A stretch of DNA of 64,000 nucleotides from NCBI GenBank assembly GCA_947630445.1, contig CANRHQ010000003.1, forward strand, positions 11,733-75,732. Reading direction: 5' to 3'. Position 1 is the stretch's first letter; every line of letters starts with the position of its first letter. This DNA is from an uncultured Clostridia bacterium. GTDB taxonomy: Bacteria; Bacillota; Clostridia; TANB77; CAG-508. Under the pieces are notes generated by a model. The model was not told where the DNA came from. It saw nothing but the letters and a program-made list of their open reading frames with translations, and did not search any database. This document shows, piece after piece, positions 2,214 through 64,000 of this stretch. The position numbers were made by a program, and so were the translations under genes.

Positions 2214-3578
2214 TTATTTACAATTTTTTTCAATCAATTTTGCAATTTCTTTTGCCTTTTTTTCTATTACCTTTTCATCTTTTCCTTCAATCATTACTCT
2301 TACAAGTGGTTCAGTTCCTGATGGTCTTATTAAAACTCTGCCATTTCCTGAAAATTCTTTTTCTAAATTATCTATTGCATTTTTAATTTCTGGATTTTTT
2401 TCATATTCGTACTTTTTTTCTGTCGATACTTTTGCATTAATTAATACTTGTGGATATTTTTGTACTATTTTTGATAATTCAGAGGCTTTTTTTCCAGTCT
2501 CAAATAATGCTTGTATTAACATTAATGATGTTAATATTCCATCTCCTGTTGGATTATAATCTAATAAAATTATATGTCCTGATTGTTCTCCTCCTAAATT
2601 ATATTCGTTTTTCAACATTTCTTCAAGAACATATCTATCTCCTACTTTTGTTTGTAATAATTTCATTTTATTTTTTTCTGCATATTTATTTAATCCTAGA
2701 TTGCTCATTACTGTTGCTACAATAGTTTTGTTATTTAACTTTCCTTTAGCTTGTAAATAGTTTGCAATTATTGCTAGTAACTTATCTCCATCAATTTCTT
2801 CTCCTTTTTCATCTATTGCTAAACATCTATCTCCATCTCCATCATAAGCAATTCCTAAATTCATCTTATTTTTTAAGACATATTCTTTTAACATCTCTAG
2901 GTGTGTTGAACCACAATTTTGATTTATGTTTATTCCATCTGGATTATTGTTTATTATTTCATGTTCTATTCCTAATGTTTTAAATACTTTATCAGCAATT
3001 TGATATGTTGCACCATTAGCTGTATCTATTACTACTTTAAAATTATTCTTTTTATATTTTTCTATATTATCTTCAAAATTTTTTCTAAAAAAGTATATAT
3101 ATTCATCTATTAAATCTGTTCTTACTTCTGAAACACCTATTTTATCTTTTACAGCAGATAATTCATCTAGTTTTCCTGAATCCATTACATCTTCTATTTC
3201 TTCTTCTATTTCATCTGATATTTTCATACCTTTATTACTAAAATATTTAATTCCATTAAATTCATATGTATTATGTGATGCTGAAATAACCACACTTGCA
3301 TCTGCTTGTAATTTTTTAGTTAAATATGCCACAGCTGGTGTTGGTATAACTCCTAATAATTTTACATTTGCACCATAGCTTAAAAATCCTGCTACCATAG
3401 CACTTTCTATTAATGTCCCTGATAAACGCGTATCTCTACCAATTAAAATCGTTGGTGCTTTATTAGTATGTTTTGACAATACATATGCTCCTGATTTTGC
3501 AACTTTGTATACTAATTCTGGAGATAATTCAGTGTTTGCTATTCTACGAATACCATCTGTTCCAAAATACTTTCTCAT
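2214..3578 (-). CDS. glmM: Phosphoglucosamine mutase
   Basis: 454 aa. N-terminus MRKYFGTDGIRR, active-site serine motif ISASHN, and DGDGDR metal loop. Confidence 0.92.
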   Translation of the reverse strand: MRKYFGTDGIRRIANTELSPELVYKVAKSGAYVLSKHTNKAPTILIGRDTRLSGTLIESAMVAGFLSYGANVKLLGVIPTPAVAYLTKKLQADASVVISASHNTYEFNGIKYFSNKGMKISDEIEEEIEDVMDSGKLDELSAVKDKIGVSEVRTDLIDEYIYFFRKNFEDNIEKYKKNNFKVVIDTANGATYQIADKVFKTLGIEHEIINNNPDGININQNCGSTHLEMLKEYVLKNKMNLGIAYDGDGDRCLAIDEKGEEIDGDKLLAIIANYLQAKGKLNNKTIVATVMSNLGLNKYAEKNKMKLLQTKVGDRYVLEEMLKNEYNLGGEQSGHIILLDYNPTGDGILTSLMLIQALFETGKKASELSKIVQKYPQVLINAKVSTEKKYEYEKNPEIKNAIDNLEKEFSGNGRVLIRPSGTEPLVRVMIEGKDEKVIEKKAKEIAKLIEKNCK

Positions 3579-9776: not shown

Positions 9777-9810
9777 AAGATGTAAATATCTTAAATTTAC
9801 ATCTTTTTTA
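9775..9810. terminator. Bidirectional hairpin terminator between convergent prx and GT2 genes
   Basis: AAAAGATGTAAAT (9775..9787) pairs with ATTTACATCTTTT (9795..9807), with A/T runs on both sides. It overlaps both stop codons. Confidence 0.6.
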
Positions 9811-10483
9811 TTATAATTTTAAAATGTCTAATTCCATCTCGAACTGTTCTTAAATGCGATTTTCCATTTCTTTTATCTTTGTAAAAATTTATTGGAACTT
9901 CTGCCATTTTAATATTTTGTTTTCTTGCTTTTATAATCATTTCTGTTGCTAACTCCATACCTTTTGAATTACATCCGATTTCTAACATTTTTTCTGTATC
10001 AAAACCTCTTAATCCACAGTTAAAGTCTCCTATACTTATATCATATTTTTTTCTAGCTATCCAACTTATTAGAGGTGTTCCTATATATCTATGCAAAAAC
10101 TTCATTGCCCCTTTTTCCATATTTCCTTTGAATCTATTGCCAATTACCAATTGATATCCTTCAAGTAGTTTCTCATATATAGGCAATACTTCTAATAAAT
10201 TATAACTATCATCAGCATCTATCATTATAGTATATTTTCCTTTAGCCAATCTAATTCCTTCTCTTATTGCTACACCATATCCTCTTTCTTCCACAGTTTC
10301 TGTTCTAGCACCTAAACTTTTAGATATTTCCTCTGTATTATCAGTGCTTCCATTATTTATTACTAATATTTCTCCATTTATATTATTTTCTTCTAAAAAT
10401 TTTTTTCCTTTTTCTATACATATTGCTATTGTTTTTTCTTCATTAAGTGCTGGTATTAATATTGTTAAATCTAATTGGTTCAT
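9797..10483 (-). CDS. Family 2 glycosyltransferase (polyprenol-phosphate sugar transferase-like, soluble form)
   Basis: 228 aa. LTILIPALNEE...NNGSTD...DADDS motifs. Overlaps the upstream gene by 4 nt (ATGA-type coupling). Confidence 0.85.
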   Translation of the reverse strand: MNQLDLTILIPALNEEKTIAICIEKGKKFLEENNINGEILVINNGSTDNTEEISKSLGARTETVEERGYGVAIREGIRLAKGKYTIMIDADDSYNLLEVLPIYEKLLEGYQLVIGNRFKGNMEKGAMKFLHRYIGTPLISWIARKKYDISIGDFNCGLRGFDTEKMLEIGCNSKGMELATEMIIKARKQNIKMAEVPINFYKDKRNGKSHLRTVRDGIRHFKIIIKKM

Positions 10484-11820
10484 TTATATTCTCCTTTTTT
10501 ATTATCTTTTTTAAAATTAATTTCCTTTAATAGTAATTTATAATTTAAGCAATCTATAATTATATAAAAAAGTGCTATTATTGTTATAATTTGTTCTCTA
10601 AATGTAAAAAAAGAATGATAATATGAATGACTCACAAGTATTAAATATCTCATATATGGCATAACTGATATAAAAAGCAATATTAAAGAAAACCATTTTT
10701 TTCTTATGTTTTTCCAGTCAATACTTATTATTAAAACAAATATACTTATTAATACAATTTTTAATATATCTGATTTTCTCTTTATAATATTTATTGGATA
10801 TAAATTATGAAAATTCTCATACAATGATCCTATATATAATTCTTTTGTACTTATATATCCTTTTTTTCCATTAATTCTAAATAACAAGTTATCTTTTACA
10901 TAATCTAGTGCATTTATATTTAATATAATTGATGCTAAAAGCCATTTTGTTAGCCACATTGCAACATACGCTATTCCCCATATTACACAACTTTTTATTA
11001 GAAATATAATTTCTTCTTTTATTGTCTTTATTCTTCCTTCTTCTTTTCTAACTAATAATACTAACAACATTGGTACTAAAAATGTTATTAATTCCGTTGT
11101 TAAAAAATCAAAGAAACATGTTAATATTCCTGTAATAAAAAATAGTTTGTATAATAATTGATTTCCCTTTTTTTCTATTTGTATTGCAATTATACTTACA
11201 ATTAACATTATATAAAATGTCCATGAATATTCTAAACAATATGGTACAATTGGAAATGCAATTAATATCATAGAAATAATATATATTATTGCTATTTTTT
11301 TACTTTTTCTTAATAATATAAAGAAAAGTAATATAGCAAGCATCCATAATAAAATTTTATTTAAAAGGTATATTTCTTCTATATTAAAAATTGTTAAAAG
11401 TGGTCTTAAAATTACAATACTTCCATGCCAATATCTTATATATTGTTGATTTGGCTCTTTTTCTTCTTTTATTGATTTTATAAAATCATAGTTTACATCT
11501 GCATAGGATTTTTGATAATATTTATCTACCATTACTGATTCAAGTGGTTTACTTGAATCAATATTATTTATTATATTTAGAATTATTGTGTCTGCATAAT
11601 AATGTACAAATGTATATTCTCTTCTTTTTAAAATCTCTTCCATTCCAGATCTTTTTTCAAAAAATGGTACAGACTCTTTTAAGTTTTCTTGTATAGCACT
11701 TTTGGGAATTAATGATGTAATAATTAATAAAAATAATACTACTAAAACTGTAAATACAAAGTACATTATATATTTTATTATTTCTACTAATGTATTTTTT
11801 ATTTTAATAGCATTGAACAT
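10480..11820 (-). CDS. Polytopic membrane protein (about 10 or more TM helices); possible GT-C-type glycosyltransferase, by context only
   Basis: 446 aa and highly hydrophobic. AAAGGAG RBS. Translationally coupled to the GT2 gene. The function is inferred, not recognised. Confidence 0.7.
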   Translation of the reverse strand: MFNAIKIKNTLVEIIKYIMYFVFTVLVVLFLLIITSLIPKSAIQENLKESVPFFEKRSGMEEILKRREYTFVHYYADTIILNIINNIDSSKPLESVMVDKYYQKSYADVNYDFIKSIKEEKEPNQQYIRYWHGSIVILRPLLTIFNIEEIYLLNKILLWMLAILLFFILLRKSKKIAIIYIISMILIAFPIVPYCLEYSWTFYIMLIVSIIAIQIEKKGNQLLYKLFFITGILTCFFDFLTTELITFLVPMLLVLLVRKEEGRIKTIKEEIIFLIKSCVIWGIAYVAMWLTKWLLASIILNINALDYVKDNLLFRINGKKGYISTKELYIGSLYENFHNLYPINIIKRKSDILKIVLISIFVLIISIDWKNIRKKWFSLILLFISVMPYMRYLILVSHSYYHSFFTFREQIITIIALFYIIIDCLNYKLLLKEINFKKDNKKGEYK

Positions 11821-11873
11821 ATCAAAAATTTCTCCTTTTCTTTATTTTTATTTTAATATTATTTTACAAATTT

Positions 11874-11902
11874 ATTCTAACAATAAAGTATACTATTTGC
11901 AA
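11874..11902 (-). promoter_or_regulatory. Fixed-orientation promoter of the membrane-protein/GT2 operon, paralogous to the promoters inside the three invertible cassettes
   Basis: The minus strand reads ATAAAGTA-TTGCAA-ATAGTATACTTTATTGT-TAGAAT (17-nt spacer with an extended TG). The cassettes carry ATAAAGTA-TTGCAA-TTAGTATATTTTATTGT-TAAAAT. Confidence 0.65.
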
Positions 11903-11922
11903 TACTTTATAAGGAAAATCTT

Positions 11923-12006
11923 TTATGATGTAATAATTAATGAAAATAGTACTATTAAAATTGTAATACAAAATACTTTGCATTTCATTTTAATAGTACT
12001 AAACAT
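11923..12006 (-). repeat. Remnant copy 1 of the 5' end of the 446-aa membrane-protein gene (with RBS remnant)
   Basis: The minus strand reads ATG TTT AGT ACT ATT AAA ATG AAA ... = MFSTIKMKCKVFCITILIVLFSLIITS*. This is homologous to MFNAIKIKNTLVEIIKYIMYFVFTVLVVLFLLIITS of the real gene at 11820. The plus-strand ORF 11702..12010 in the track is its antisense shadow. Confidence 0.75.
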
Positions 12007-12038
12007 ATAAAAAATTCTTCTTTTATTTGTTTTTGCAA

Positions 12039-13190
12039 TTATTCTTCTAATGTTATATTTGAGTCTTCAGAACGAGTTTCATATATTTCTCTTAATTTAG
12101 GACAAGTTCCTTTTAATACTAAATTAGCATCTGGATTAGTAGAAGCATTTTGCAAGCAATCATAATAGTATATACAATCAGATGAATTAATAATTAATTC
12201 TCCAGTAAGACAATAACATTCACAGAAACACATACGCAAATCATCAACAAGCATTGGAATCGTCGGAGCAGTAGTTAATGAAACACAACCGTTAAAAGTA
12301 GAGGTCATCGAAGTAACCGTAGATGGAATCTCAGGTGCAATAACTAAATCTTCACAATTCAAAAATGTGCTACTCATGTTAATAACTTCATACCATTCAT
12401 CCTCTCCATCTACCTTTATATACTGAGGAACTTTTCCTTGTATCTTCCCTTCAACAATATTTGAATTATCATATCCTGGAGACGCACTACAACCAGACAC
12501 CTCATTTAAAGCAAATCCCTTAACAGTACCATCAAACATCAGAATCTTTCGATACCTCCAAAGATCTAAATTAACTGAATTTCCATCTGTTCCTATTCCA
12601 ATATCTCCATTTTCTGGACTTTGACTTGGATGTTTTTTTGCATTTTCTTTAGCTGCCTCCCAGTCTATTTCTGTTGTTGAATCTGATATACTAGTTATAT
12701 ATCCTATTTCTTCCATATTCTCTTTTTTATCATAATATACTAATATATATTCTTCTGTAATTCTTTCACTTGAAAGTTTTACATTTTCTATACTTGCTAC
12801 TTTTGATAATTTATCACTTTCTTCTAACTTATATACATCCTTTGTTCCAGTTCCGTTTCCATATGCTATTGTTTTTCCTAGTAAATTATATATATTTACT
12901 GTATAATCATCATTTACAAATCCTTTTCTTTGTAAATATTCCATTAAATGTTCATTTAAACCTATTGCCTCTTTTTCTACCATATAATTTTGTACTTCTA
13001 TTTGTAATCCTTCATATACTTCTGCATGTGCATTTTTTGTTTTTGCTTCTTTTGAATTTGTTATTATTCCACTATCTCCTGCTAACATTGCAATTGATGT
13101 TCCTGCTAATATTAGCAATACTACAATAGTAACTACTAATGCTATTAGCGTTATACCATTTTGTTTTTCTCTTGTTTCTTTCTCTTTCAT
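12039..13190 (-). CDS. Pilin-like-N-terminus surface/secreted protein with BspA-type leucine-rich repeats (paralog A)
   Basis: 383 aa. N-terminus MKEKETREKQNG-ITLIALVVTIVVLLILAG has a short charged leader ending in G followed by a hydrophobic helix, which is prepilin-like but lacks Glu at +5. C-terminal repeats follow the pattern STF.nC..L..AP.IP..V..M.STFNGC.SLTTAP.IP. AAAGGAGGAACC RBS. Confidence 0.85.
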   Translation of the reverse strand: MKEKETREKQNGITLIALVVTIVVLLILAGTSIAMLAGDSGIITNSKEAKTKNAHAEVYEGLQIEVQNYMVEKEAIGLNEHLMEYLQRKGFVNDDYTVNIYNLLGKTIAYGNGTGTKDVYKLEESDKLSKVASIENVKLSSERITEEYILVYYDKKENMEEIGYITSISDSTTEIDWEAAKENAKKHPSQSPENGDIGIGTDGNSVNLDLWRYRKILMFDGTVKGFALNEVSGCSASPGYDNSNIVEGKIQGKVPQYIKVDGEDEWYEVINMSSTFLNCEDLVIAPEIPSTVTSMTSTFNGCVSLTTAPTIPMLVDDLRMCFCECYCLTGELIINSSDCIYYYDCLQNASTNPDANLVLKGTCPKLREIYETRSEDSNITLEE

Positions 13191-13214: not shown

Positions 13215-13411
13215 CTTAATCTCTATAATTAAAGAAAAATAAAAAAGATGTAAATAACTAAAAATATGTATATTTACATCTTTTCTTGATTTTTAATTTT
13301 CATAATTTTATAAAAATATTTCTAAAAAAATTTTTTTCATAAAGTATTGCAATTAGTATATTTTATTGTTAAAATTATTTTATGAATAAATCTTTAATTA
13401 TAGAGATTAAG
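13215..13411. promoter_or_regulatory. Candidate invertible promoter cassette (inverton) A
   Basis: Perfect 21-bp inverted repeat: CTTAATCTCTATAATTAAAGA at 13215..13235 and its reverse complement at 13391..13411. The 155-bp interior holds a hairpin (13243..13256 / 13271..13284, AAAAGATGTAAATA / TATTTACATCTTTT). It also holds a plus-strand promoter: TTGCAA 13347..13352, 17-nt spacer ending TGT, TAAAAT 13370..13375. The promoter points away from gene A. Confidence 0.7.
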
Positions 13412-13515
13412 GATTTTTTTGTTCTGTAAAATAATAATGTATTTATTTTTATATTCATTTTTTATAATGATATATTTCCTTTTAAATTTTCTTCTATCAT
13501 ACTTTTGCGAATCAA

Positions 13516-13596
13516 TTATGTAATAATTAATAAAAATAGTACTATTAAAATTATAATACAAAATACTTTGCATTTCATTTTAATAGTACTAAAAAT
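13516..13596 (-). repeat. Remnant copy 2 of the 5' end of the membrane-protein gene (start codon mutated to ATT)
   Basis: Near-identical to remnant copy 1: ...AGTACTATTAAAATGAAATGCAAAGTATTTTGTATTATAATTTTAATAGTACTATTTTTATTAATTATTACATAA on the minus strand. Track ORF 13505..13750 is its antisense shadow. Confidence 0.7.
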
Positions 13597-13620
13597 ATTA
13601 AAATTTTTCCTTTTTTTCTA

Positions 13621-14766
13621 TTATTCCTCTAATGTTATATGTGATTCCTCAGAACGAGTTTCATATATATCTTCTAAATTAGGACAAGTTCCTTTCAATA
13701 CTAAATTAGCATCTGGATTAGTAGAAGCATTTCGCAAGCAGCCATCATAACCATACCAACCATCAAGCAACTCAGCCGAATTAATAATTAATTCTCCAGT
13801 AAGATTACTGCATCCATAAAAGCAATAACTCAAATCTCTAACTTGTGTTGGAATCATTGGTGCAGTAGTTAAACTTTTACAGTCATTAAAAGTCGAAGAC
13901 ATGTAAGTAACTGTATCAGGAATATCAGGTGCAATAACTAAATTAGAACAACTATAAAAAGTCGCAAGCATATAAGTAACAACACGCCATTGGTCTTCCC
14001 CAGCTACTTTTATATATTGAGGAACTTTTCCTTGTATTTTCCCATCAACAATATCAGAATTCTGATATGCTGGTTCTGAAAAGCTACCCATACTCGCACA
14101 CAACACAATTGAATTGTCTCCTTCCTTTTGATACTTCCAAAGATCCATATTAACTGGATTTCCATCTGTTCCTATTCCAATATCTCCATTTTCTGAACTT
14201 TGGCTTGGATGTTTTTTTGCATTTTCTATAGCCTTTTCCCAGTCTATTTCTGTTGAATCTGATATACTAGTTATATATCCTATTTCTTCCATATTCTCTT
14301 TTTTATCATAATATACTAATATATATTCTTCTGTAATTCTTTCACTTGAAAGTTTTACATTTTCTATACTTGCTACTTTTGATAATTTATCACTTTCTTC
14401 TAACTTATATACATCCTTTGTTCCACTTCCATTTCCGTATTCTATTGTTTTTCCTAATAAATTATATATATTTACTGTATAATCATCATTTATGAATCCT
14501 TTTCTTTGTAAATATTCCATTAAATGCTCATTTAAACCTCTTGTCTCTTTTTCTACCATATAATTCTGTGTTTCTATCTGTAATACCTCATACACTTCTG
14601 CGTGTGCATTTTTTGTTTTTGCCTCTTTTGAATTTGTTATTATTCCATTATCTCCTGATAACATTGCAATTGATGTTCCCGCTAATATTAATAATACTAC
14701 AATCGTTACTACTAATGCTATTAGCGTTATACCTTTTTGTTTTTCTCTTGTTTTTTCCTCTTTCAT
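13621..14766 (-). CDS. Pilin-like-N-terminus surface/secreted protein with BspA-type leucine-rich repeats (paralog B)
   Basis: 381 aa. The first ~205 aa and the last ~30 aa are nearly identical to paralog A. The central LRR-bearing part has diverged. Same RBS and leader. Confidence 0.85.
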   Translation of the reverse strand: MKEEKTREKQKGITLIALVVTIVVLLILAGTSIAMLSGDNGIITNSKEAKTKNAHAEVYEVLQIETQNYMVEKETRGLNEHLMEYLQRKGFINDDYTVNIYNLLGKTIEYGNGSGTKDVYKLEESDKLSKVASIENVKLSSERITEEYILVYYDKKENMEEIGYITSISDSTEIDWEKAIENAKKHPSQSSENGDIGIGTDGNPVNMDLWKYQKEGDNSIVLCASMGSFSEPAYQNSDIVDGKIQGKVPQYIKVAGEDQWRVVTYMLATFYSCSNLVIAPDIPDTVTYMSSTFNDCKSLTTAPMIPTQVRDLSYCFYGCSNLTGELIINSAELLDGWYGYDGCLRNASTNPDANLVLKGTCPNLEDIYETRSEESHITLEE

Positions 14767-14790
14767 TGGTTCCTCCTTTATTTGTTTTTT

Positions 14791-14984
14791 CTTAATCTTT
14801 GTAATTAAAGAAAAATAAAAAGATGTAAATAACTTAAATATGTATATTTACATCTTTTTTGATTTTTAATTTTCATAAATTTATAAAAATATTTGTAAAA
14901 AATTTTTCCTCATAAAGTATTGCAATTAGTATATTTTATTGTTAAAATTATTTCATAGAATAATCTTTAATTACAAAGATTAAG
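14791..14984. promoter_or_regulatory. Candidate invertible promoter cassette (inverton) B
   Basis: Perfect 21-bp inverted repeat: CTTAATCTTTGTAATTAAAGA at 14791..14811 and its reverse complement at 14964..14984. Hairpin at 14818..14831 / 14845..14858. Plus-strand promoter: TTGCAA 14920..14925, 17-nt spacer, TAAAAT 14943..14948, pointing away from gene B. Confidence 0.7.
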
Positions 14985-15014: not shown

Positions 15015-17762
15015 TTATTCATCTTTAGCAGTATTTAGTTTTAATAATTTTAATATCTCGACTATTACAATTGGTGCTAATATTAGCAATATAATTTCTA
15101 AAATATTTCCCATTGGCAAAACTGGTATACTAAATATATGTCTTAATGCAGGAACAAATAAAATTACACCCATTAGTATAGCTGATACTAATACTGCAAG
15201 AATTAATACGCCGTTTCCCAATATTCCTGTTTTAAATATTGACTTTTTATTATCTCGTATATTAAATACATGAACTAATTCAGAAAAAGCTAATACTGTA
15301 AATGCCATTGTTTGACCAACTTCAACTTTTAATTGTTCAGTTGTTAGTTGTGCCAAATCAGAATTATTAGCTTTTAATAAATCTATTGCATCATTTGGTA
15401 TTGCAAGACCTATTAAAAATGCTATAAGTGTAAGTAAACCTATCATTATACCTTGATATATAATTCTAAATGTTCTTCCTTTTGTAAATATCCCTTCATT
15501 TTTCTTTATAGGTTTTCTATTCATTATATCTTTATTTGCTGGATCAAATGCTAATGCTAATGCTGGGAATGTATCTGTTACTAAATTTATCCATAAAATA
15601 TGAATTGGTAGTAATACTTGTAGCATTGCTACATCTGATATTCCAAAGCATTTTGCAATTATAGGTGCAAATAATGTTGCTAATAATAAAACTACTACTT
15701 CTCCAACATTACAAGAAATTAAAAATTGTATTACTTTTAATATGTTGTCATATATTCTTCTTCCTTCTTCTACTGCTGATACTATTGTTGCAAAGTTATC
15801 ATCTGTTAATATTACATCTGCTGCTTCTTTTGCAACTTCTGTACCAACTTTTCCCATTGCACATCCTATATCAGAAGTTTTTAATGCTGGACTATCATTT
15901 ACTCCATCACCTGTCATTGCAACAATTTCTCCATTTGCTTGCCATGCTTTTACTATACGCACTTTATGTTCAGGTGATACTCTTGCATATACTGAATATT
16001 TTCTTATATCTCTCTTTAATTCCTCATCAGAAATTTTTTCTAATTCTGCTCCAGTTAAAGCCTCACTATCATTTTCTAATATTCCTAACTTCTTTGCTAT
16101 TGCTACTGCTGTAACTTTGTGATCTCCTGTAATCATTACGGTTTTTATTCCTGCTGTTTTACATTTTTCTACTGCTTTTTTAGCTTCTTCTCTTGGAGGA
16201 TCTATCATTCCAACCATTCCAATAAATGTTAAATCTGTTTCAATTGTTTTCATTTCTTGTTTAGTTGGCATATGGTCAATCTCTTTATATGCAAATGCTA
16301 ATACTCTTAATGCTTCTTTTGCCATGTTTTCATTGTTTTCTCTTATTATTTTAGCATATTCATTTAAGTCTTTTTTTACTTCACCATTATATAAATATGA
16401 ATTACATATTCTTAATAATTCATCTACTCCACCTTTTGTATATACTATATATTTTCCATTATTCTCATTAACTGTTGTCATCAATTTTCTTTCAGAATCA
16501 AATGGTACTTCTTCTACTCTTTTATTCTCCTCATATATTTCTTGCTTATATTTCAATTTTAATGCCATATCTACTAATGCTGTTTCTGTTGGGTCTCCTA
16601 CTAATTCTCCATTTTCTAGTAATCTTGTGTCATTACATAACATACAATTATATATCATTTTATCAAATTCTTCTGTTTTTTCTGTCTTGCTTACATCTGT
16701 TGTTTTATTATTGCAAAATATTTTTTCTACTGTCATTTTATTTTGAGTTAATGTTCCTGTTTTATCTGAACATATTACAGTACTACTACCTAAAGTTTCT
16801 ACAGCTGGTAATTTTTTTACAATAGCATTTTTCTTAACCATTTTTTGGACTCCTATAGCTAATACTATTGTTGATACTGCTACTAATCCCTCTGGTATTA
16901 CTGCTACTGCTAAAGATACTGCTGTCATAAACATATCTATTATACCTTTACCTTGTAGCAATCCTATTATAAATATTATTGCACATATTGTTAATGCTGC
17001 AATTCCTAAAGTTTTTCCTAAACTATTTAACCTTTGTTGAAGTGGAGTTTCTTGTTTTTCTGTTTCATTTAACATTCCTGCTATTTTTCCAACTTCTGTA
17101 TTCATTCCTGTTTCAACAACTATTGCCTTTCCTCTACCATATGTAATAAGACTTGATGAAAATAGCATATTGATTCTATCACCAACTCCTACTTCTTTGG
17201 CATTTAATTCTTGTGTTTCTTTTTCTACAGGTACTGATTCTCCAGTTAATGAAGATTCTTGTGCTTTTAAATTTATTGCTTCTATGATTCTTAAATCTGC
17301 TGATACATAATCTCCTGTTTCTATTATAACTAAATCTCCTGGCACTAATTCTCTAGCTGGTATAACTTGTTCTTTTCCATCCCTAATTACTTTTGCAGCA
17401 TGTTCACTCAATTTTTTTAATGCTTCTAATGATTTTTCTGCTTTACTTTCTTGTATAACTCCAATTATTGCATTTAAAAGTACTACTATTAGAATTATTA
17501 CTGTATCTGTTATTCCTTCTCCTTCTGCTACTCCTACTATTCCAGATACTATTGCTGCTATTATTAAAACAATTATTGAAAAATCTTTAAATTGTGCAAT
17601 AAATTTTTGAAATAATGTTTCTTTCTTTTTTTCCTTTAATTCATTTAATCCATATTGTATTTTATTTTCTTCTACCTTATTGCTTTCTAATCCTCTACTT
17701 AAATTTGTAGATAATTCTTGTTCAACTTCCTTAATAGTTTTATTAAACCATTGTTTTTCCAT
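15015..17762 (-). CDS. P-type Ca2+-transporting ATPase (PMCA/SERCA-like, P2 type)
   Basis: 915 aa. Motifs CSDKTGTLTQNKM (phosphorylation site), TGES, MITGDH, TGDGVNDSPALK, and ten TM helices. Confidence 0.9.
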   Translation of the reverse strand: MEKQWFNKTIKEVEQELSTNLSRGLESNKVEENKIQYGLNELKEKKKETLFQKFIAQFKDFSIIVLIIAAIVSGIVGVAEGEGITDTVIILIVVLLNAIIGVIQESKAEKSLEALKKLSEHAAKVIRDGKEQVIPARELVPGDLVIIETGDYVSADLRIIEAINLKAQESSLTGESVPVEKETQELNAKEVGVGDRINMLFSSSLITYGRGKAIVVETGMNTEVGKIAGMLNETEKQETPLQQRLNSLGKTLGIAALTICAIIFIIGLLQGKGIIDMFMTAVSLAVAVIPEGLVAVSTIVLAIGVQKMVKKNAIVKKLPAVETLGSSTVICSDKTGTLTQNKMTVEKIFCNNKTTDVSKTEKTEEFDKMIYNCMLCNDTRLLENGELVGDPTETALVDMALKLKYKQEIYEENKRVEEVPFDSERKLMTTVNENNGKYIVYTKGGVDELLRICNSYLYNGEVKKDLNEYAKIIRENNENMAKEALRVLAFAYKEIDHMPTKQEMKTIETDLTFIGMVGMIDPPREEAKKAVEKCKTAGIKTVMITGDHKVTAVAIAKKLGILENDSEALTGAELEKISDEELKRDIRKYSVYARVSPEHKVRIVKAWQANGEIVAMTGDGVNDSPALKTSDIGCAMGKVGTEVAKEAADVILTDDNFATIVSAVEEGRRIYDNILKVIQFLISCNVGEVVVLLLATLFAPIIAKCFGISDVAMLQVLLPIHILWINLVTDTFPALALAFDPANKDIMNRKPIKKNEGIFTKGRTFRIIYQGIMIGLLTLIAFLIGLAIPNDAIDLLKANNSDLAQLTTEQLKVEVGQTMAFTVLAFSELVHVFNIRDNKKSIFKTGILGNGVLILAVLVSAILMGVILFVPALRHIFSIPVLPMGNILEIILLILAPIVIVEILKLLKLNTAKDE

Positions 17763-18147: not shown

Positions 18148-20469
18148 CTATTCTTCTTTCTTTTTCTTTAAATTTACAACAATTGCATTTTCATTATCAA
18201 ATATAAAATTTGAATCTGTTGTATCTGTTTGGACAGGATTAACTTCCTGTTTTTCATCTGTAAAGTTTACATTTTTTGGATTAAATTTTATTTTTGTTGA
18301 ATCATCTGGTTCATTATTTGTAACACCTGGTGTAAATTTTGTAAAGTTATATATTTTTACAGGTTGTTCTTCTTTATATTTTGCACCTATAAAATCTAGT
18401 TTTGCTTCACCTATATCATATGAACCATAATCATTTTTCAACTTTAATGCTCCTATTTTGAATCCTAAAGTTGCAAGTTTATTTACAGGGAAATATAACT
18501 CCCAATCATATTTTACACCGCCCCATTTTGGATCATAAGAATTAGTTTTGGTATCCAAACTCTGTGAATATATCCATGTCCTTCTCTTATAGAATTCACT
18601 TGACCACCATTCTAGTTCTTCTGTTACTGCATTTCCTAGGAATAATTTATTTGCACAATTTGATAATATTGTATCTTTATATTTTAATTTTGGTGAGTTT
18701 CCTTCTAATTGTGCTAAGTTTTGTGCTGTTATTGTTGTTCCAACTTTATATTTACGATATAGTGTAAATATTGCTTCTGTATCTTTACATATAAAATCTG
18801 GAAATTCATCTATATATAAGAAATGTGGTATTCTACTACTTTCATTTCCTGGTCTTCTTAATACACCCATTTGCATTGAAAGTATAAAGAATAATCCGAA
18901 TGCTTTATGACTAGTTCTTCCTAAATCTCCTCTACGAGTACATACTAATGTTACTTCACCATTTGCTAATGCTTTGTCAAAATCTATATTATTAGTTCTT
19001 TTACAAAGAATTGCCTTAACTCCTGGTAATCTTAATAAATTATCTAGTTGTGATACAGCTAAATATATATATTTCTCTGTATCTGCTTTTCCTGGACCAT
19101 CAGCATAAAAATTCTTTTTGAAATACTCTATTTGCATACTATATTTTTCTGCTAATTCCTCATCATTTCTCATTATTTCGCACATTTTTTCTACTAAGTC
19201 AAAGTTTGTAAGCATTTTTAACATATCTTCTAGATTTGGTAAATTTCCACCATTTATTCTAGGATACATTTCTTTTAACATAATTGTTAAATTTTCTATT
19301 GCTTGAATTATATATTCTTCTCTGTATGAATCCTCTATTTCTGGATGATTATTTACATACATTCCTTTTAATGCTGATGATATTGTTATTGCTATTTTTG
19401 AAGCATCATCATAAACAAATGGATTTAATCCAATTGAATCACTACTTCCTGGATCTATCAAATTATATTTTATATGAAAGTTTTTACAAACATTCATTAT
19501 TTTAGAAGTTGATTCAAAGTCAGGTGCTATTGATGTTATACCTACATTTCTATAAATAAATTCATTTCCAAATGATGATAATATCATTTTATTCATATAA
19601 GCCTTATAAACAGTTTCTTTACCATAAGCTGGTGTAAGCATATTTAAATCAAAATTCTCATTTAGATAATCATTATCATATGGTTTATTTAATGTGGCTA
19701 TACCTGTTTTTAATGCTGTATATCCCATTTCCTTTGCATTTGCTATATAAAATGCTTTCTTTTCAATATCTTTTGCCATCATTGGTTCTAGTACTAAAGT
19801 AGTTTTTCCTGTTCCTGAACCTCCACATACAAATAATGATTGATATCTCTTTTGTTCGAAAAATGTCATTTTTCTACCAGTTTCAAACTCTGTACAAAAT
19901 AACATATCACATGTAAATGGTCCATGTCCTGCTTTAGAATCTGCTAAACTTATTCCTCTATAATCCCATAAAGATCTTTTTGCATCTTTACTATCATTAA
20001 TTTTAAATACAATCCACTTTATTACTGAATAAAATGTCGTTAATGGTAAGTATAGTGCTAATGCTGTAAATGCTGGTCTAATTAATTCTGAAAAGTCTGT
20101 AACTAACTCTGTATATCCAGGCATTGATATTAAAAAGAGCCATGCTGCTTGATTAATCCATTGTACAAACATTGATAATGCTATTACATATAAAGTAACT
20201 ATGTATGTTAAAAATAATGTTATTTTTATATTTTTTGATGAAGCAAATTCTGATGTTGGTGAAAATAAAAATGCAAAAACCGGACATGCAAGTGCTAATG
20301 TGTATCTAATTGGTCCCCAATATGAAACAGATACACCTGTAAACACTAAAAATAACATTTCTACTACTCTATCAACTAATATGTATAATGAAATCAATGT
20401 TAATACATAAGTTGCAAATGTATTTCTGCTAGCATTTAGTTTCTTTAAAAATTTATCTATTATTTTCAT
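18148..20469 (-). CDS. Membrane-anchored VirD4/TraD/TraG-like type IV coupling-protein ATPase (orphan)
   Basis: 773 aa. About 5 N-terminal TM helices, Walker A VCGGSGTGKTTLV, Walker B-like HFLYIDEFPDF, then GTTITAQNLAQLEG. This is the T4CP arrangement hhhhDE...Q..xQL. Confidence 0.7.
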   Translation of the reverse strand: MKIIDKFLKKLNASRNTFATYVLTLISLYILVDRVVEMLFLVFTGVSVSYWGPIRYTLALACPVFAFLFSPTSEFASSKNIKITLFLTYIVTLYVIALSMFVQWINQAAWLFLISMPGYTELVTDFSELIRPAFTALALYLPLTTFYSVIKWIVFKINDSKDAKRSLWDYRGISLADSKAGHGPFTCDMLFCTEFETGRKMTFFEQKRYQSLFVCGGSGTGKTTLVLEPMMAKDIEKKAFYIANAKEMGYTALKTGIATLNKPYDNDYLNENFDLNMLTPAYGKETVYKAYMNKMILSSFGNEFIYRNVGITSIAPDFESTSKIMNVCKNFHIKYNLIDPGSSDSIGLNPFVYDDASKIAITISSALKGMYVNNHPEIEDSYREEYIIQAIENLTIMLKEMYPRINGGNLPNLEDMLKMLTNFDLVEKMCEIMRNDEELAEKYSMQIEYFKKNFYADGPGKADTEKYIYLAVSQLDNLLRLPGVKAILCKRTNNIDFDKALANGEVTLVCTRRGDLGRTSHKAFGLFFILSMQMGVLRRPGNESSRIPHFLYIDEFPDFICKDTEAIFTLYRKYKVGTTITAQNLAQLEGNSPKLKYKDTILSNCANKLFLGNAVTEELEWWSSEFYKRRTWIYSQSLDTKTNSYDPKWGGVKYDWELYFPVNKLATLGFKIGALKLKNDYGSYDIGEAKLDFIGAKYKEEQPVKIYNFTKFTPGVTNNEPDDSTKIKFNPKNVNFTDEKQEVNPVQTDTTDSNFIFDNENAIVVNLKKKKEE

Positions 20470-37348: not shown

Positions 37349-38896
37349 CTACAAGTACAAACCGATACGAAATCCATAGTATTCAGAACAGCTAGAGGGA
37401 TCCTCCTCATCCCACTTATTCGCCGTTAAACCGGCCATTCCCGAACCAACATGACCGTAGTAACCACCTCTAAGGCAAAGTTTAACACCATTTTTGACGT
37501 ATAGTTTTGTCCATTCTTCTACATTTCCTGCTAAATCATATATATTATTTGCTTTGGTATTTGGAAATTGTCCTGTTTTTATTAAATCATCTGTTCCTGA
37601 AAATGTATCATCTTTATAATTCCCCCAACTTGTACTGTCAAATCCTATTTCTTCTATTGTTTTATTTCCTGTTTCATATAACCATCCTAATGTTCTATCC
37701 CATGCTGCTCCTGTTAATAATGAACTTGTTGCATTTGTTCCTACACTTTTTGCATATCCTTCTGCTTTAGTTAATGCTTCTGTTTGTGTAATCCAATTAT
37801 ATACATATTTATTTTTTTGTGTTACTAATGTTCCTTCTTTTGATTCAGTTCTTATTTGATTTGCTAATGAATCTCCTGCTTCATATCTTCCTATATAAAA
37901 TCCTCCATTTTTATTGACACTGGTTTTGTAATTATCTTCTGGGTCTTCGTATTCAGTGAATGAAGTTTTATATTCGTTTTTAAAAATCGCTAAAAATTCT
38001 TCTCGACTCATTCCAGATGAATTTAATAAATCTTCTAATTTCATACCCAATGCTTCATACATACTTTCAACCTGTTTAAGAAGTAATTCATCTGTCATCC
38101 AAAAATTTTGTGCATATAAACTATATACTTCTAATGTTTTACTTGTTTCTCCTTTACTTGTTGTTACTTTTATTTTATATTCTCCATTTATTGTTGGCTC
38201 TATTTCTTTATTATATGTTTTTCCTAGTTGTTCATTATCTTCTGATAATATATCTTCTCCGGATGGGTCTGTTACTACTATACTTGTTATTTCTTCTTTA
38301 CTTTCTACTTTTGCAGTTATCTTTTGATCTTTTTCTACTGGCACCCATACAAATTGATTTCCAACTAACTCTGCATCTACTCCTTTTCCATTGTCCTCTT
38401 CACTATCAGATATTACATATCCCTCATTTATGCTTCCTCCTACATGATAAAATCCTTCTGGTATTGGTGGATTTTCTACTTTTGTTCCTTTTATTGTTAA
38501 ACTTATGCTTACATCAGATTTTTCTGCTTCTTCTACTTTTCCATTTTTATCTATTGTATATACATTACTACTTGGAAATGTTACCTTGAAGTTGTTTCCG
38601 TCTTCTTCTACTGTTATTCTATCATCATATTTTTTTAGTTCATCTTCAAGTTGTTTTCTTGTTACTCCTTGTCCATTATTACCAGCTATTACTGCACTAT
38701 ATGATAATTTTACTTGTTCTTTTTCTTCTCCTATTTTTGTTTCTTCTTTTGCTCTTTGTGATTGCCTTATTATTCCATTATCTCCTGCTAGCATTGATAT
38801 ACTTACTCCTGCTAGTATTAATAAGACTACTATTGTTACTACTAATGCTATTAGCGTTATACCTTTTTGTTTTTCTCTTGTTTCTTTCTTTTTCAT
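37349..38896 (-). CDS. Pilin-like-N-terminus secreted protein with C-terminal FGE/SUMF1-like (formylglycine-generating-enzyme fold) domain (paralog C)
   Basis: 515 aa. The N-terminus MKKKETREKQKG-ITLIALVVTIVVLLILAG is nearly identical to paralogs A and B. C-terminal motifs FYIGRYE, AAWDRTLGWL, NIYDLAGNVEEWT, LRGGYY and YGFRIGLY match the FGE-sulfatase domain pattern. Confidence 0.85.
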   Translation of the reverse strand: MKKKETREKQKGITLIALVVTIVVLLILAGVSISMLAGDNGIIRQSQRAKEETKIGEEKEQVKLSYSAVIAGNNGQGVTRKQLEDELKKYDDRITVEEDGNNFKVTFPSSNVYTIDKNGKVEEAEKSDVSISLTIKGTKVENPPIPEGFYHVGGSINEGYVISDSEEDNGKGVDAELVGNQFVWVPVEKDQKITAKVESKEEITSIVVTDPSGEDILSEDNEQLGKTYNKEIEPTINGEYKIKVTTSKGETSKTLEVYSLYAQNFWMTDELLLKQVESMYEALGMKLEDLLNSSGMSREEFLAIFKNEYKTSFTEYEDPEDNYKTSVNKNGGFYIGRYEAGDSLANQIRTESKEGTLVTQKNKYVYNWITQTEALTKAEGYAKSVGTNATSSLLTGAAWDRTLGWLYETGNKTIEEIGFDSTSWGNYKDDTFSGTDDLIKTGQFPNTKANNIYDLAGNVEEWTKLYVKNGVKLCLRGGYYGHVGSGMAGLTANKWDEEDPSSCSEYYGFRIGLYL

Positions 38897-38917: not shown

Positions 38918-39119
38918 TCCTTAATCTTTGTACCTTAAAGAAAAATAAAAAGATGTAAACAACTTAAATATGTATATTTACATCTTTTTATTGATTTTTA
39001 ATTTTCATTATTTTATAAAAATATTTGTAAAAAAATTTTTTCCATAAAGTATTGCAATTAGTATATTTTATTGTTAAAATTATTTCATAGAATAATCTTT
39101 AAGGTACAAAGATTAAGGA
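38918..39119. promoter_or_regulatory. Candidate invertible promoter cassette (inverton) C
   Basis: Perfect 24-bp inverted repeat: TCCTTAATCTTTGTACCTTAAAGA at 38918..38941 and its reverse complement at 39096..39119. Hairpin at 38948..38961 / 38975..38988. Plus-strand promoter: TTGCAA 39052..39057, 17-nt spacer, TAAAAT 39075..39080, pointing away from gene C. Confidence 0.7.
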
Positions 39120-62593: not shown

Positions 62594-62899
62594 CTATTTT
62601 CCACAATTACAATCATTTGAATTCATGTCTAAATAGTTTCCATCATTCATATAGAATTTCTTTTCTGATAATTTGTCTTGTACTCCTCTTAATGCTTCTC
62701 CAAACCTTTGGAAATGAACTATCTCTCTTTGTCTTAAAAATCTCAATGGGTCTATTACTTCTGGATTATCTCTGCATAAGTTTATTAGTTTTTCATAAGT
62801 TGCTCTTGCTTTTTGTTCTGCTGCTAAATCTTCTTGAAGATTTGCAATAGCATCACCTTTACATGCAATATATGCTGCTGTGCTATTAAGGATACCATT
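62594..62899 (-). pseudogene. cotJC: 3' fragment (about 100 codons) of a CotJC-like manganese catalase gene, truncated at an element junction
   Basis: Hand translation of the minus strand gives NGILNSTAAYIACKGDAIANLQEDLAAEQKARATYEKLINLCRDNPEVIDPLRFLRQREIVHFQRFGEALRGVQDKLSEKKFYMNDGNYLDMNSNDCNCGK*. It aligns with the B. subtilis CotJC C-terminal half (...ASYIQAKGDPIADLYEDIAAEEKARATYQWLI...LRFLREREIVH..RF.EA). The frame hits TAA immediately upstream, inside the recombinase gene's end, so no N-terminal half is present here. Confidence 0.75.
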
Positions 62900-64000
62900 A
62901 GTTATTACTTATTTTTGAGAAAACTAATTTTAAATTTATGTTACGATTACTGTCAAATTCGATTTTATCTATCAAATTACTCAATATCTGTTTAGTTACC
63001 TTGTTTGTGTTTAAAAATTCCTCAGATAGCTTTTTAATTTGATTATAACTTATTGTATTTTTATTTTTCTCAAGCTTTATTTTCTGTTCTAAATCACAAA
63101 TTTGCTTTTTACATTTTTCAATGTCATTTTCTTTTTGAGCTTTAATTGATAAAAAAGTTTCATTATTGATAATATTTTCAAGTTTATCATTATAGGTAAT
63201 TTTTATCTGTTCATTTATTTTATCTATTTTAGCAAGTAACCCTTGTTTTTGATCTTCTAATCTATGGCATTCATAATTAATGCTTTTTTCTAAGTTATTC
63301 ATAACAGTTTTTATATCATTATCATTAAAAGAAATATTTTTACATTCTTTTTCTATTATTGGAATTATTATATTATACAGTTTTCTACTACTTATAGATT
63401 TTGTATTATTACACTTTTTATTTGTACCTTTGTTAGCTTCAGAACAAATATAAGAGTTTATCTCGCATTTACCACCATTTTTAGTAGTTTTTTCTTTATG
63501 TTTTAATGTAGAAATACTACCACATTCTTTACAATAAATTAAACCTTTAAAAATATCATCATATTTTCTGTTTCTATTATTCTTAAATCTCTCTTTTAGT
63601 ATTTGACATTTATTAAATGTTTGTATATCAATTATTGGCTCATGCATATTTTCAACAATTATTTGATTTTCTTTAGTATTTCTAATTCTTTCTTTCCTTC
63701 TAAAACTTGGTTTTACTGTTTTTGCTCCTACCACTGTTCCAATATACACAGGATTACTAACAATTCTTGTTATTGTAATTTCCTTCCAACCTTCTGAATT
63801 TGCTTTTATTCCTTTTATTTTTAAATACTCTCTAGGTGGTATGATTTTTCTCTCATTTAAACTTTTTACTATTTCTGTGCGAGTATATCCTTTTGAATAC
63901 TTTTCAAATATTTCTTGTATAATAGTTGATACTTCACTATCAACTATTAACCTATTTTTATTATTTGAACCTTTTTTGTATCCATATGGAGCAGTGTTTC
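62898..64000 (-). mobile_element. Large serine recombinase gene (3' two-thirds; runs off the right edge) marking the end of an integrated element
   Basis: The track ORF 62898..63749 starts at an internal GTG. The frame stays open upstream to 64000 (...APYGYKKGSNNKNRLIVDSEVSTIIQEIFEKYSKGYTRTEIVKSLNERKIIPPREYL...ITRIVSNPVYIGT...). This shows the recombinase domain, a zinc-ribbon (CKECGS...C..C) and a coiled coil, the layout typical of SpoIVCA/phage-type large serine recombinases. Confidence 0.8.

Follow-up and report, generated by a model that had tools for sequence, protein, structure and literature searches.

Classical promoter invertons, such as fimS of E. coli (FimB/FimE), the polysaccharide promoters of Bacteroides fragilis (Mpi) and the PhaseFinder-type elements, which include the Clostridia-rich 'group 139', carry a promoter on a short segment flanked by inverted repeats (IRs) in front of genes for surface structures, with several such segments per genome at paralogous or analogous loci. 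Most catalogued invertons are shorter than 300 bp (PMC11602134), and in gut Clostridia, invertons with IRs of ~25 nt have been linked to tyrosine recombinases (PMC11892184). The cwpV switch of C. difficile has 21-bp IRs around 195 bp and lies 57 bp from the ATG; the published genome carries it in the OFF orientation, and ~5% of the cells are ON (PMC2784873). Its recombinase, RecV, is encoded elsewhere in the genome and acts on several switches (PMC2784873; see also PMC5903667).

Here we analyzed a 64-kb stretch of DNA from an uncultured Clostridia bacterium, called the window throughout and used for all positions. An earlier note on this DNA had proposed that an inverton in the OFF state lies directly upstream of gene B, which encodes a predicted surface protein; we refer to this element of 194 bp (14791-14984) as cassette B. 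Catalogues already list thousands of invertons of comparable size and layout. The closest relatives of cassette B are the cwpV/RecV-type switches of C. difficile and the Clostridia-rich PhaseFinder-type inverton groups (PMC2784873, PMC11892184, PMC11602134). Like cwpV (Cdi1, tyrosine recombinase RecV), cassette B belongs to a low-GC Clostridia host, has 21-bp IRs around a short segment (152 bp, against 195 bp in cwpV), lies a few tens of bp upstream of a gene for a cell-surface protein and is OFF in the reference genome. The two differ in that cwpV has its promoter outside the switch and an orientation-specific terminator, whereas the predicted promoter of cassette B lies inside and its putative terminator is independent of orientation. 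The IR sequences are unrelated, and inversion and the recombinase were demonstrated for cwpV and are predicted for cassette B. With the classical invertons cassette B shares the IR-flanked promoter, the position before surface-structure genes, the occurrence of several copies per genome and, as in most catalogued cases, a length below 300 bp. In contrast to them it appears to pack a bidirectional terminator together with the promoter, it precedes genes for pilin-like/BspA-LRR proteins of uncultured Clostridia, and it is known here from assemblies. We hold with moderate confidence that cassette B is a putative invertible promoter, a phase-variation switch that is OFF as assembled and whose recombinase would be encoded elsewhere in the genome. 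By its size and layout it would be an inverton of the ordinary kind, and is a probable new case.

Results

Three cassettes with perfect inverted repeats precede paralogous genes

Perfect IRs of at least 16 nt with a gap of 30-600 nt occur exactly three times in the 64 kb, against a mean of 0.1 in first-order Markov simulations, and the three are cassettes A, B and D. A degenerate consensus of the arms has 4 matches in the window versus 0.09 expected from shuffles. A chance origin of the repeats is excluded. In cassette B the arms are 21 nt long and lie exactly where the earlier note had placed them: the gene-proximal arm, CTTAATCTTTGTAATTAAAGA, at 14791-14811 is the perfect complement of the gene-distal arm at 14964-14984, and the two enclose an interior of 152 nt. 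An IR pair around a short (<~750 bp) intergenic segment, the hallmark of invertons, is thus present. The interior was also tested for two-fold symmetry, which was not significant.

Gene B (13621..14766, minus strand) starts 24 nt outside the proximal arm, as had been claimed and as both the sequence and the open reading frame bear out. This spacer (14767..14790, minus strand) contains the ribosome-binding site GGAGG (14772-14776, minus strand) and is also kept before genes A and D, each of the three cassettes lying 24-25 nt from the start of its paralogous gene. Cassette A (13215..13411, arms CTTAATCTCTATAATTAAAGA) precedes gene A (12039..13190, minus strand) and has 92% identity to cassette B in the interior. 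Cassette D (38918..39119), with perfect 24-nt arms TCCTTAATCTTTGTACCTTAAAGA, lies upstream of a 515-aa paralogue (37349..38896, minus strand). Both have the OFF orientation, so that the common design and orientation previously described for copies A and B extend to three near-identical cassettes.

The cassette interior carries a conserved putative promoter and a terminator-like hairpin

A putative sigma-70-type promoter lies on the plus strand at 14920..14948 and consists of TTGCAA (14920-14925), a 17-nt spacer and TAAAAT (14943-14948), as in the earlier description, to which we can add an extended -10 TG at 14940-14941. It points away from gene B and across the distal arm. Promoter-like matches in this AT-rich DNA are not above chance (29 sites versus 26.4 expected from shuffles), so that support for the cassette promoter comes from conservation instead: the 43-nt block that holds it (14911-14953) is identical in cassettes A, B and D, which share the consensus form TTGCAA-17-TGnTAAAAT at the end far from the gene. 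Two weak promoter-like sites are present on the sense strand upstream of the hairpin (14976..14947 and 14956..14928, minus strand).

The upstream neighbor of gene B is a P-type cation ATPase gene (15015..17762, minus strand) encoding an E1-E2 ATPase with Cation_ATPase_N and Cation_ATPase_C domains. The earlier note had called this gene convergent, which is correct with respect to the cassette promoter; relative to gene B it is upstream and co-directional, on the same minus strand. Its stop codon is 30 nt from the distal arm, and no promoter was found in these 30 nt. The predicted promoter inside cassette B is the sole conserved one of the sigma-70 type and points into the 3' end of the ATPase gene in antisense. 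No plus-strand open reading frame of at least 20 aa follows beyond the promoter and the distal arm, in agreement with the claim that the promoter has no sensible sense-strand target as assembled. Further upstream, an orphan VirD4/TraG-like coupling-protein gene (773 aa, 18148..20469, minus strand) is located among housekeeping genes; no other conjugation genes were found near it.

The hairpin, previously placed at 14818..14858, is present, spans 14817..14859 and adjoins the gene-proximal arm in the assembled orientation. Its fold is significant on both strands, with -16.4 kcal/mol (z = -5.4) on the plus strand and -15.2 kcal/mol (z = -4.2) on the minus strand, and 0 of 200 shuffles were as stable. 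On either strand an A-run precedes and a U-run follows the stem, so that the hairpin resembles an intrinsic terminator acting in both directions. Cassettes A and D have conserved counterparts with the same behavior. A strict terminator scan missed the hairpin of cassette B because its stem has fewer than 3 G-C pairs.

The arms diverge between cassettes and stay complementary within each

The two arms of any one cassette (A, B or D) are 100% complementary to each other. A comparison of different cassettes gives only 82-91% identity for the arms, versus 92-95% for the interiors, and every arm difference between cassettes is mirrored in both arms of the same cassette. The differences cluster in the arm center, which reads CTCTATA in A, CTTTGTA in B and CTTTGTAC-C in D, where the change also makes the arm differ in length by 1 nt. 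All three cassettes keep the outer CTTAATCT and the inner TAAAGA unchanged. Perfect complementarity within cassettes combined with divergence between them shows that the arms co-evolve. Independent drift would have broken the complementarity, which therefore points to homogenization by recombination between the arms or to selection for exact complementarity.

This pattern resembles that of heterospecific (spacer-variant) lox and FRT sites, since the outer arm bases (CTTAATCT...TAAAGA) are common to A, B and D, only the center varies, and both sides of a cassette carry the same variant. The comparison is an analogy only, and the arm of cassette D additionally differs in length by the 1 nt mentioned. 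As the outer bases are common and the centers differ, each cassette probably recombines with itself only and would switch independently of the others.

A fixed homologue of the promoter reads into a putative surface-glycosylation operon

A homologue of the cassette promoter outside any intact cassette is present at 11845..11924 on the minus strand, with a TTGCAA-17-TAGAAT core (11874-11905) that includes the TG. Over 80 nt this copy is 81% complementary to cassette B, that is, in the opposite orientation; intact repeats are absent and only a degenerate repeat remnant is left. Its core is located ~50 nt upstream of the start codon, on the sense strand of a gene for a 446-aa multi-pass membrane protein (10480..11820, minus strand) for which Pfam gave no match. 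This gene is followed by one whose product is, according to a domain search, a GT2 glycosyltransferase of the polyprenyl-phosphate type (9797..10483), and the two look like a surface-glycosylation pair. Because the fixed copy reads straight into a real operon, it identifies the strand of the conserved block that carries the promoter, and it indicates that this block, a predicted promoter, serves to drive genes. We also considered the fixed copy as a 'fossil ON' junction and dropped the idea, as the alignment with the ON flank was no better than with shuffles and that with the OFF flank only marginally better.

Immediately behind the stop codons of genes A and B, at 11913-12034 and 13503-13624, lie ~120-nt relics of the 5' part of the 446-aa gene that still contain its ribosome-binding site and start codon. 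The A/B array arose by tandem duplication with a period of ~1576-1590 nt, of which these relics are traces; the 59-aa open reading frame at 13394..13573 (minus strand) belongs to them.

Genes A, B and D encode putative pilin-like surface proteins with variable C-termini

Gene B encodes 381 aa with a pilin-like hydrophobic N-terminus, KGITLIALVVTIVVLLILAG, and BspA-type LRR/DUF285 repeats. The ribosome-binding site and the first ~40 codons are nearly identical in genes A, B and D. Genes A and B continue with a conserved IGIGTDGxPVNMDLW motif and then the BspA-type LRR/DUF285 repeats, while the 515-aa product of gene D joins the pilin-like N-terminus common to the family to an FGE-sulfatase-like C-terminus. 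The scores for PF07963 (N_methyl) are 19.7 bits for B and D and 18.5 bits for A, below the cut-off of 21.2; 15 of 25 homologues match this profile, all below threshold, and position +5 of the pilin-like segment is Ala, not Glu. Against the LRR_5 (PF13306) and DUF285 (PF03382) profiles gene B reaches 18.3 bits (threshold 27.7). It aligns end to end with its homologues; LRR_5 repeats are present in 23 of 25 of them and DUF285 repeats in 17 of 25, and through these homologues gene B can be assigned to the BspA-type LRR/DUF285 surface proteins. NCBIfam added nothing for genes A, B and D. More than 7000 homologues are found in gut metagenomes.

Related cassettes occur in other gut Clostridia

In a survey of 80 GTDB genome loci with relatives of gene B we found five strong cassettes upstream of gene B homologues in other Clostridia MAGs, two each in L017 and L022 and one in L065. 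They have perfect IRs of 23-27 nt around interiors of 118-153 nt, and their distance to the ATG is 16-65 nt. Among 480 random control windows, a single one scored as well. The cassettes of L065 and L022 are homologous to those of the window (72% over 111 nt and over 210 nt). Two of the related cassettes share with cassette B the arm motif TCCTTAAT-(variable)-TAATTAAAGATT, which can also be written TCCTTAAT...TAATTAAAGA (L022, L065); the arm of L065, TCCTTAAT-TATTT-TAATTAAAGATT, ends as in the window's cassettes and has a different center. In L017 each arm is a 10-5-10 palindrome, TTCGCAGAAT-TATCT-ATTCTGCGAA, and its two cassettes differ only centrally, which adds copy-specific centers to the likeness with lox and FRT variants. 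The 10-5-10 arrangement is the layout of a recombinase core site, here a candidate one.

In all eight cassettes (three in the window, five in relatives) the best extended -10 promoter lies 4-17 nt from one arm and points outward. In 8/8 the promoter adjoins the gene-distal arm, which faces the 3' end of an upstream gene read in the same direction. This outward geometry has no obvious static purpose and would be explained naturally by a switch that is OFF in the majority of cells.

Other relatives of gene B (L189-L196 upstream of P0091; L179-L188 at ~2700-3060) have no IR cassette and carry (GA)n/(CA)n tracts in their leaders, and one relative has a poly-A run in its leader. The lengths of the leader tracts vary between samples, which suggests slipped-strand variation in the gene B protein family. 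A 431-aa paralogue directly upstream of P0084 is present or absent depending on the sample (L179-L182 and L184-L187 versus L183 and L188), with otherwise identical flanks. In L100 (1607-2029) two divergent pilin-like genes lie 353 nt apart, and their 5' ends form an 81-nt IR of 93% identity with a 268-nt spacer; this pair could be a toggle arrangement.

All sampled cassettes have the OFF orientation

Look-ups by protein identity yielded same-species contigs in four ENA assemblies (ERZ27249662, ERZ27249187, ERZ27249651, ERZ27249657) and two Logan assemblies (ERR10663778, ERR10663779). In addition to the present contig, cassette B is OFF in three other samples, A in one and D in two, and none of the same-species contigs spanning a cassette has a flipped copy of A, B or D. 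These contigs are ~4x consensus assemblies, apparently from one study, and show the majority orientation only, so that they neither prove nor refute switching. The five related cassettes are likewise all OFF (5/5). An all-against-all BLAST of ~190 fetched loci gave no orthologous pair with a flipped interior, and the widely sampled homologues P0084 and P0091, checked for orientation polymorphism, have no IR cassette at all. When the 32-nt promoter core was searched as an exact pattern with slight degeneracy, GTDB representative genomes, JGI metagenome contigs and IMG/VR gave 0 matches; none of these collections contains the species, so that they provide no population sample, and sampling is thin. 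Several contigs end inside gene A or a cassette. We rejected these ends as a signal of heterogeneity, because near-identical paralogues and cassettes explain the breaks. Of the earlier proposal of an OFF-state inverton, the anatomy stands and is strengthened by the arm co-variation and by the recurrence in other species, while the inversion itself was not observed in the assemblies.

No gene for a tyrosine or small serine recombinase was found in the 64-kb window or within 3 kb of the related cassettes, and a trans-acting enzyme, like RecV or Mpi, would have to be assumed. The window's only recombinase gene is a partial one for a large serine recombinase with Recombinase and Zn_ribbon_recom domains (62898..63749, minus strand), 48 kb from cassette B. 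Contigs from 4/4 ENA assemblies of the species break inside this gene, which suggests a multi-copy or mobile element. The arm motif (CCTTAATCTTTATAATTAAAGA) was found once in an IMG/VR contig (L197, 954-975) between phage head genes, with no partner arm; this match is probably due to chance.

A static element, a cwpV-type leader and a transposon explain the data less well

We considered whether cassette B could be static, that is, a former switch locked OFF, or a fixed leader whose repeats act as a protein operator or as a long-range nucleic-acid stem and whose hairpin acts as a conditional attenuator of transcripts arriving from upstream. The single orientation in every assembly and every related species agrees with such an element, as does the negative search for a tyrosine or small serine recombinase gene, which covered the window and 3 kb around the related cassettes, and the weak sense promoter-like sites before the hairpin make a terminator/antiterminator leader conceivable. 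However, perfect complementarity over 21-24 nt is kept in three diverging copies, which an operator does not need and which is stricter than usual for an RNA stem, since such stems tolerate G-U pairs and bulges; Rfam contains no family matching the cassette B region. The arms of a switch locked long ago should have decayed, as they have at the fixed promoter copy (11845-11924), and a conserved strong promoter facing the 3' end of the upstream gene in 8/8 cassettes would be functionless in a static element. We therefore regard a static element as rather unlikely.

A switch of the cwpV type, in which the promoter lies outside (here, read-through from the ATPase gene) and the orientation decides whether a terminator forms in the leader, would fit the dimensions, which are close to those of cwpV (PMC2784873), and the terminator-like hairpin inside the cassette. 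We judge it very unlikely, because the hairpin is symmetric, with similar stability on both strands, and should terminate transcription either way, because only a promoter-free stretch of 30 nt separates the ATPase stop codon from the distal arm, and because the cassette has its own conserved promoter. Cassette B thus has neither of the two features that define this type, an outside promoter and a terminator formed in one orientation.

Also very unlikely is a MITE-like non-autonomous transposon with terminal IRs and an outward promoter, inserted upstream of genes: the size of ~195 bp, the AT-richness, the perfect terminal repeats, the three copies at 92-95% identity and the isolated arm copy in the viral contig (L197 954-975) would suit it, but there is no target-site duplication (the flanks differ, TTTTTT/CTTAATC... 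versus ...GATTAAG/GATTTT), all copies keep a distance of 24-25 nt to start codons that belong to one gene family, no copies in other contexts were found in the window or the scanned collections, the single viral match without a partner arm is compatible with chance, and the homology runs into the ribosome-binding site and the first ~40 codons, so that the cassette was duplicated with the gene and not inserted.

Discussion

We return to the invertible promoter as the preferred reading of cassette B. From the features described we infer a switch made of two modules, an extended -10 promoter 15 nt from the distal arm that would fire outward, and a bidirectional terminator next to the opposite arm. 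In the OFF state, transcription from the promoter would cross the distal arm and run antisense to the 3' end of the ATPase gene, and the terminator would block read-through from the ATPase gene as well as transcription from the weak sense promoters; since it lies directly before the ribosome-binding site, gene B would be shielded from read-through. Recombination between the 21-bp arms would leave ~60 nt between promoter and ATG (15 nt plus the 21-nt arm plus 24 nt), move the terminator to the far, distal side and, with a start site predicted ~7 nt after TAAAAT, give gene B a leader of ~53 nt that contains the proximal arm. On the gene-sense strand the distal junction reads AAAAAAATCCTTAATCTTTGTAATTAAAGATTATTCTATGAAATAATTTTAAC in the OFF state and is predicted to read AAAAAAATCCTTAATCTTTGTAATTAAAGAAAAATAAAAAGATGTAAATAAC in the ON state, and the proximal junction would change from TTTACATCTTTTTATTTTTCTTTAATTACAAAGATTAAGAAAAAACAAATAAAGGAGG to the predicted GTTAAAATTATTTCATAGAATAATCTTTAATTACAAAGATTAAGAAAAAACAAATAAAGGAGG. 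Because the hairpin is symmetric, a mechanism based on the terminator alone would not switch, and promoter orientation would have to be the switching variable.

A more far-reaching possibility, which we put forward as speculative and consider unlikely, is that A, B and D are mutually orthogonal invertons under one trans-acting recombinase, with antisense coupling between neighbors, and that the family constitutes contingency loci. One recombinase would recognize the common outer bases of the arms, and the copy-specific centers would confine each crossover to its own cassette. The tandem A/B array would in this way be protected from deletion or large inversions, and each pilin-like protein would be switched independently. 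The OFF promoters would read in antisense into the upstream neighbor (from A into gene B, from B into the ATPase 3' end) and might couple adjacent states. Together with the (GA)n/(CA)n leaders found elsewhere, the family would represent previously unrecognized contingency loci of uncultured gut Firmicutes.

Cassette B leaves the inverton concept unchanged. Mildly new are the packaging of a promoter with a putative bidirectional terminator, the copy-specific arm centers and the link to pilin-like/BspA-LRR proteins of uncultured Clostridia; the packaging and the arm centers may be useful for synthetic switches. As the predicted surface proteins of genes A, B and D combine a pilin-like anchor with C-terminal domains that vary, switching would create heritable ON/OFF heterogeneity of an antigen or adhesin. 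If the flipping is real, the Firmicutes would provide a further example of a phenomenon described mainly in Bacteroides, E. coli and C. difficile, and the abundant unannotated 'GITLIALVV...' proteins would be marked as antigens exposed to host or phage. Uncultured gut Clostridia would then phase-vary pilin-anchored LRR surface proteins by means of at least three independent switches.
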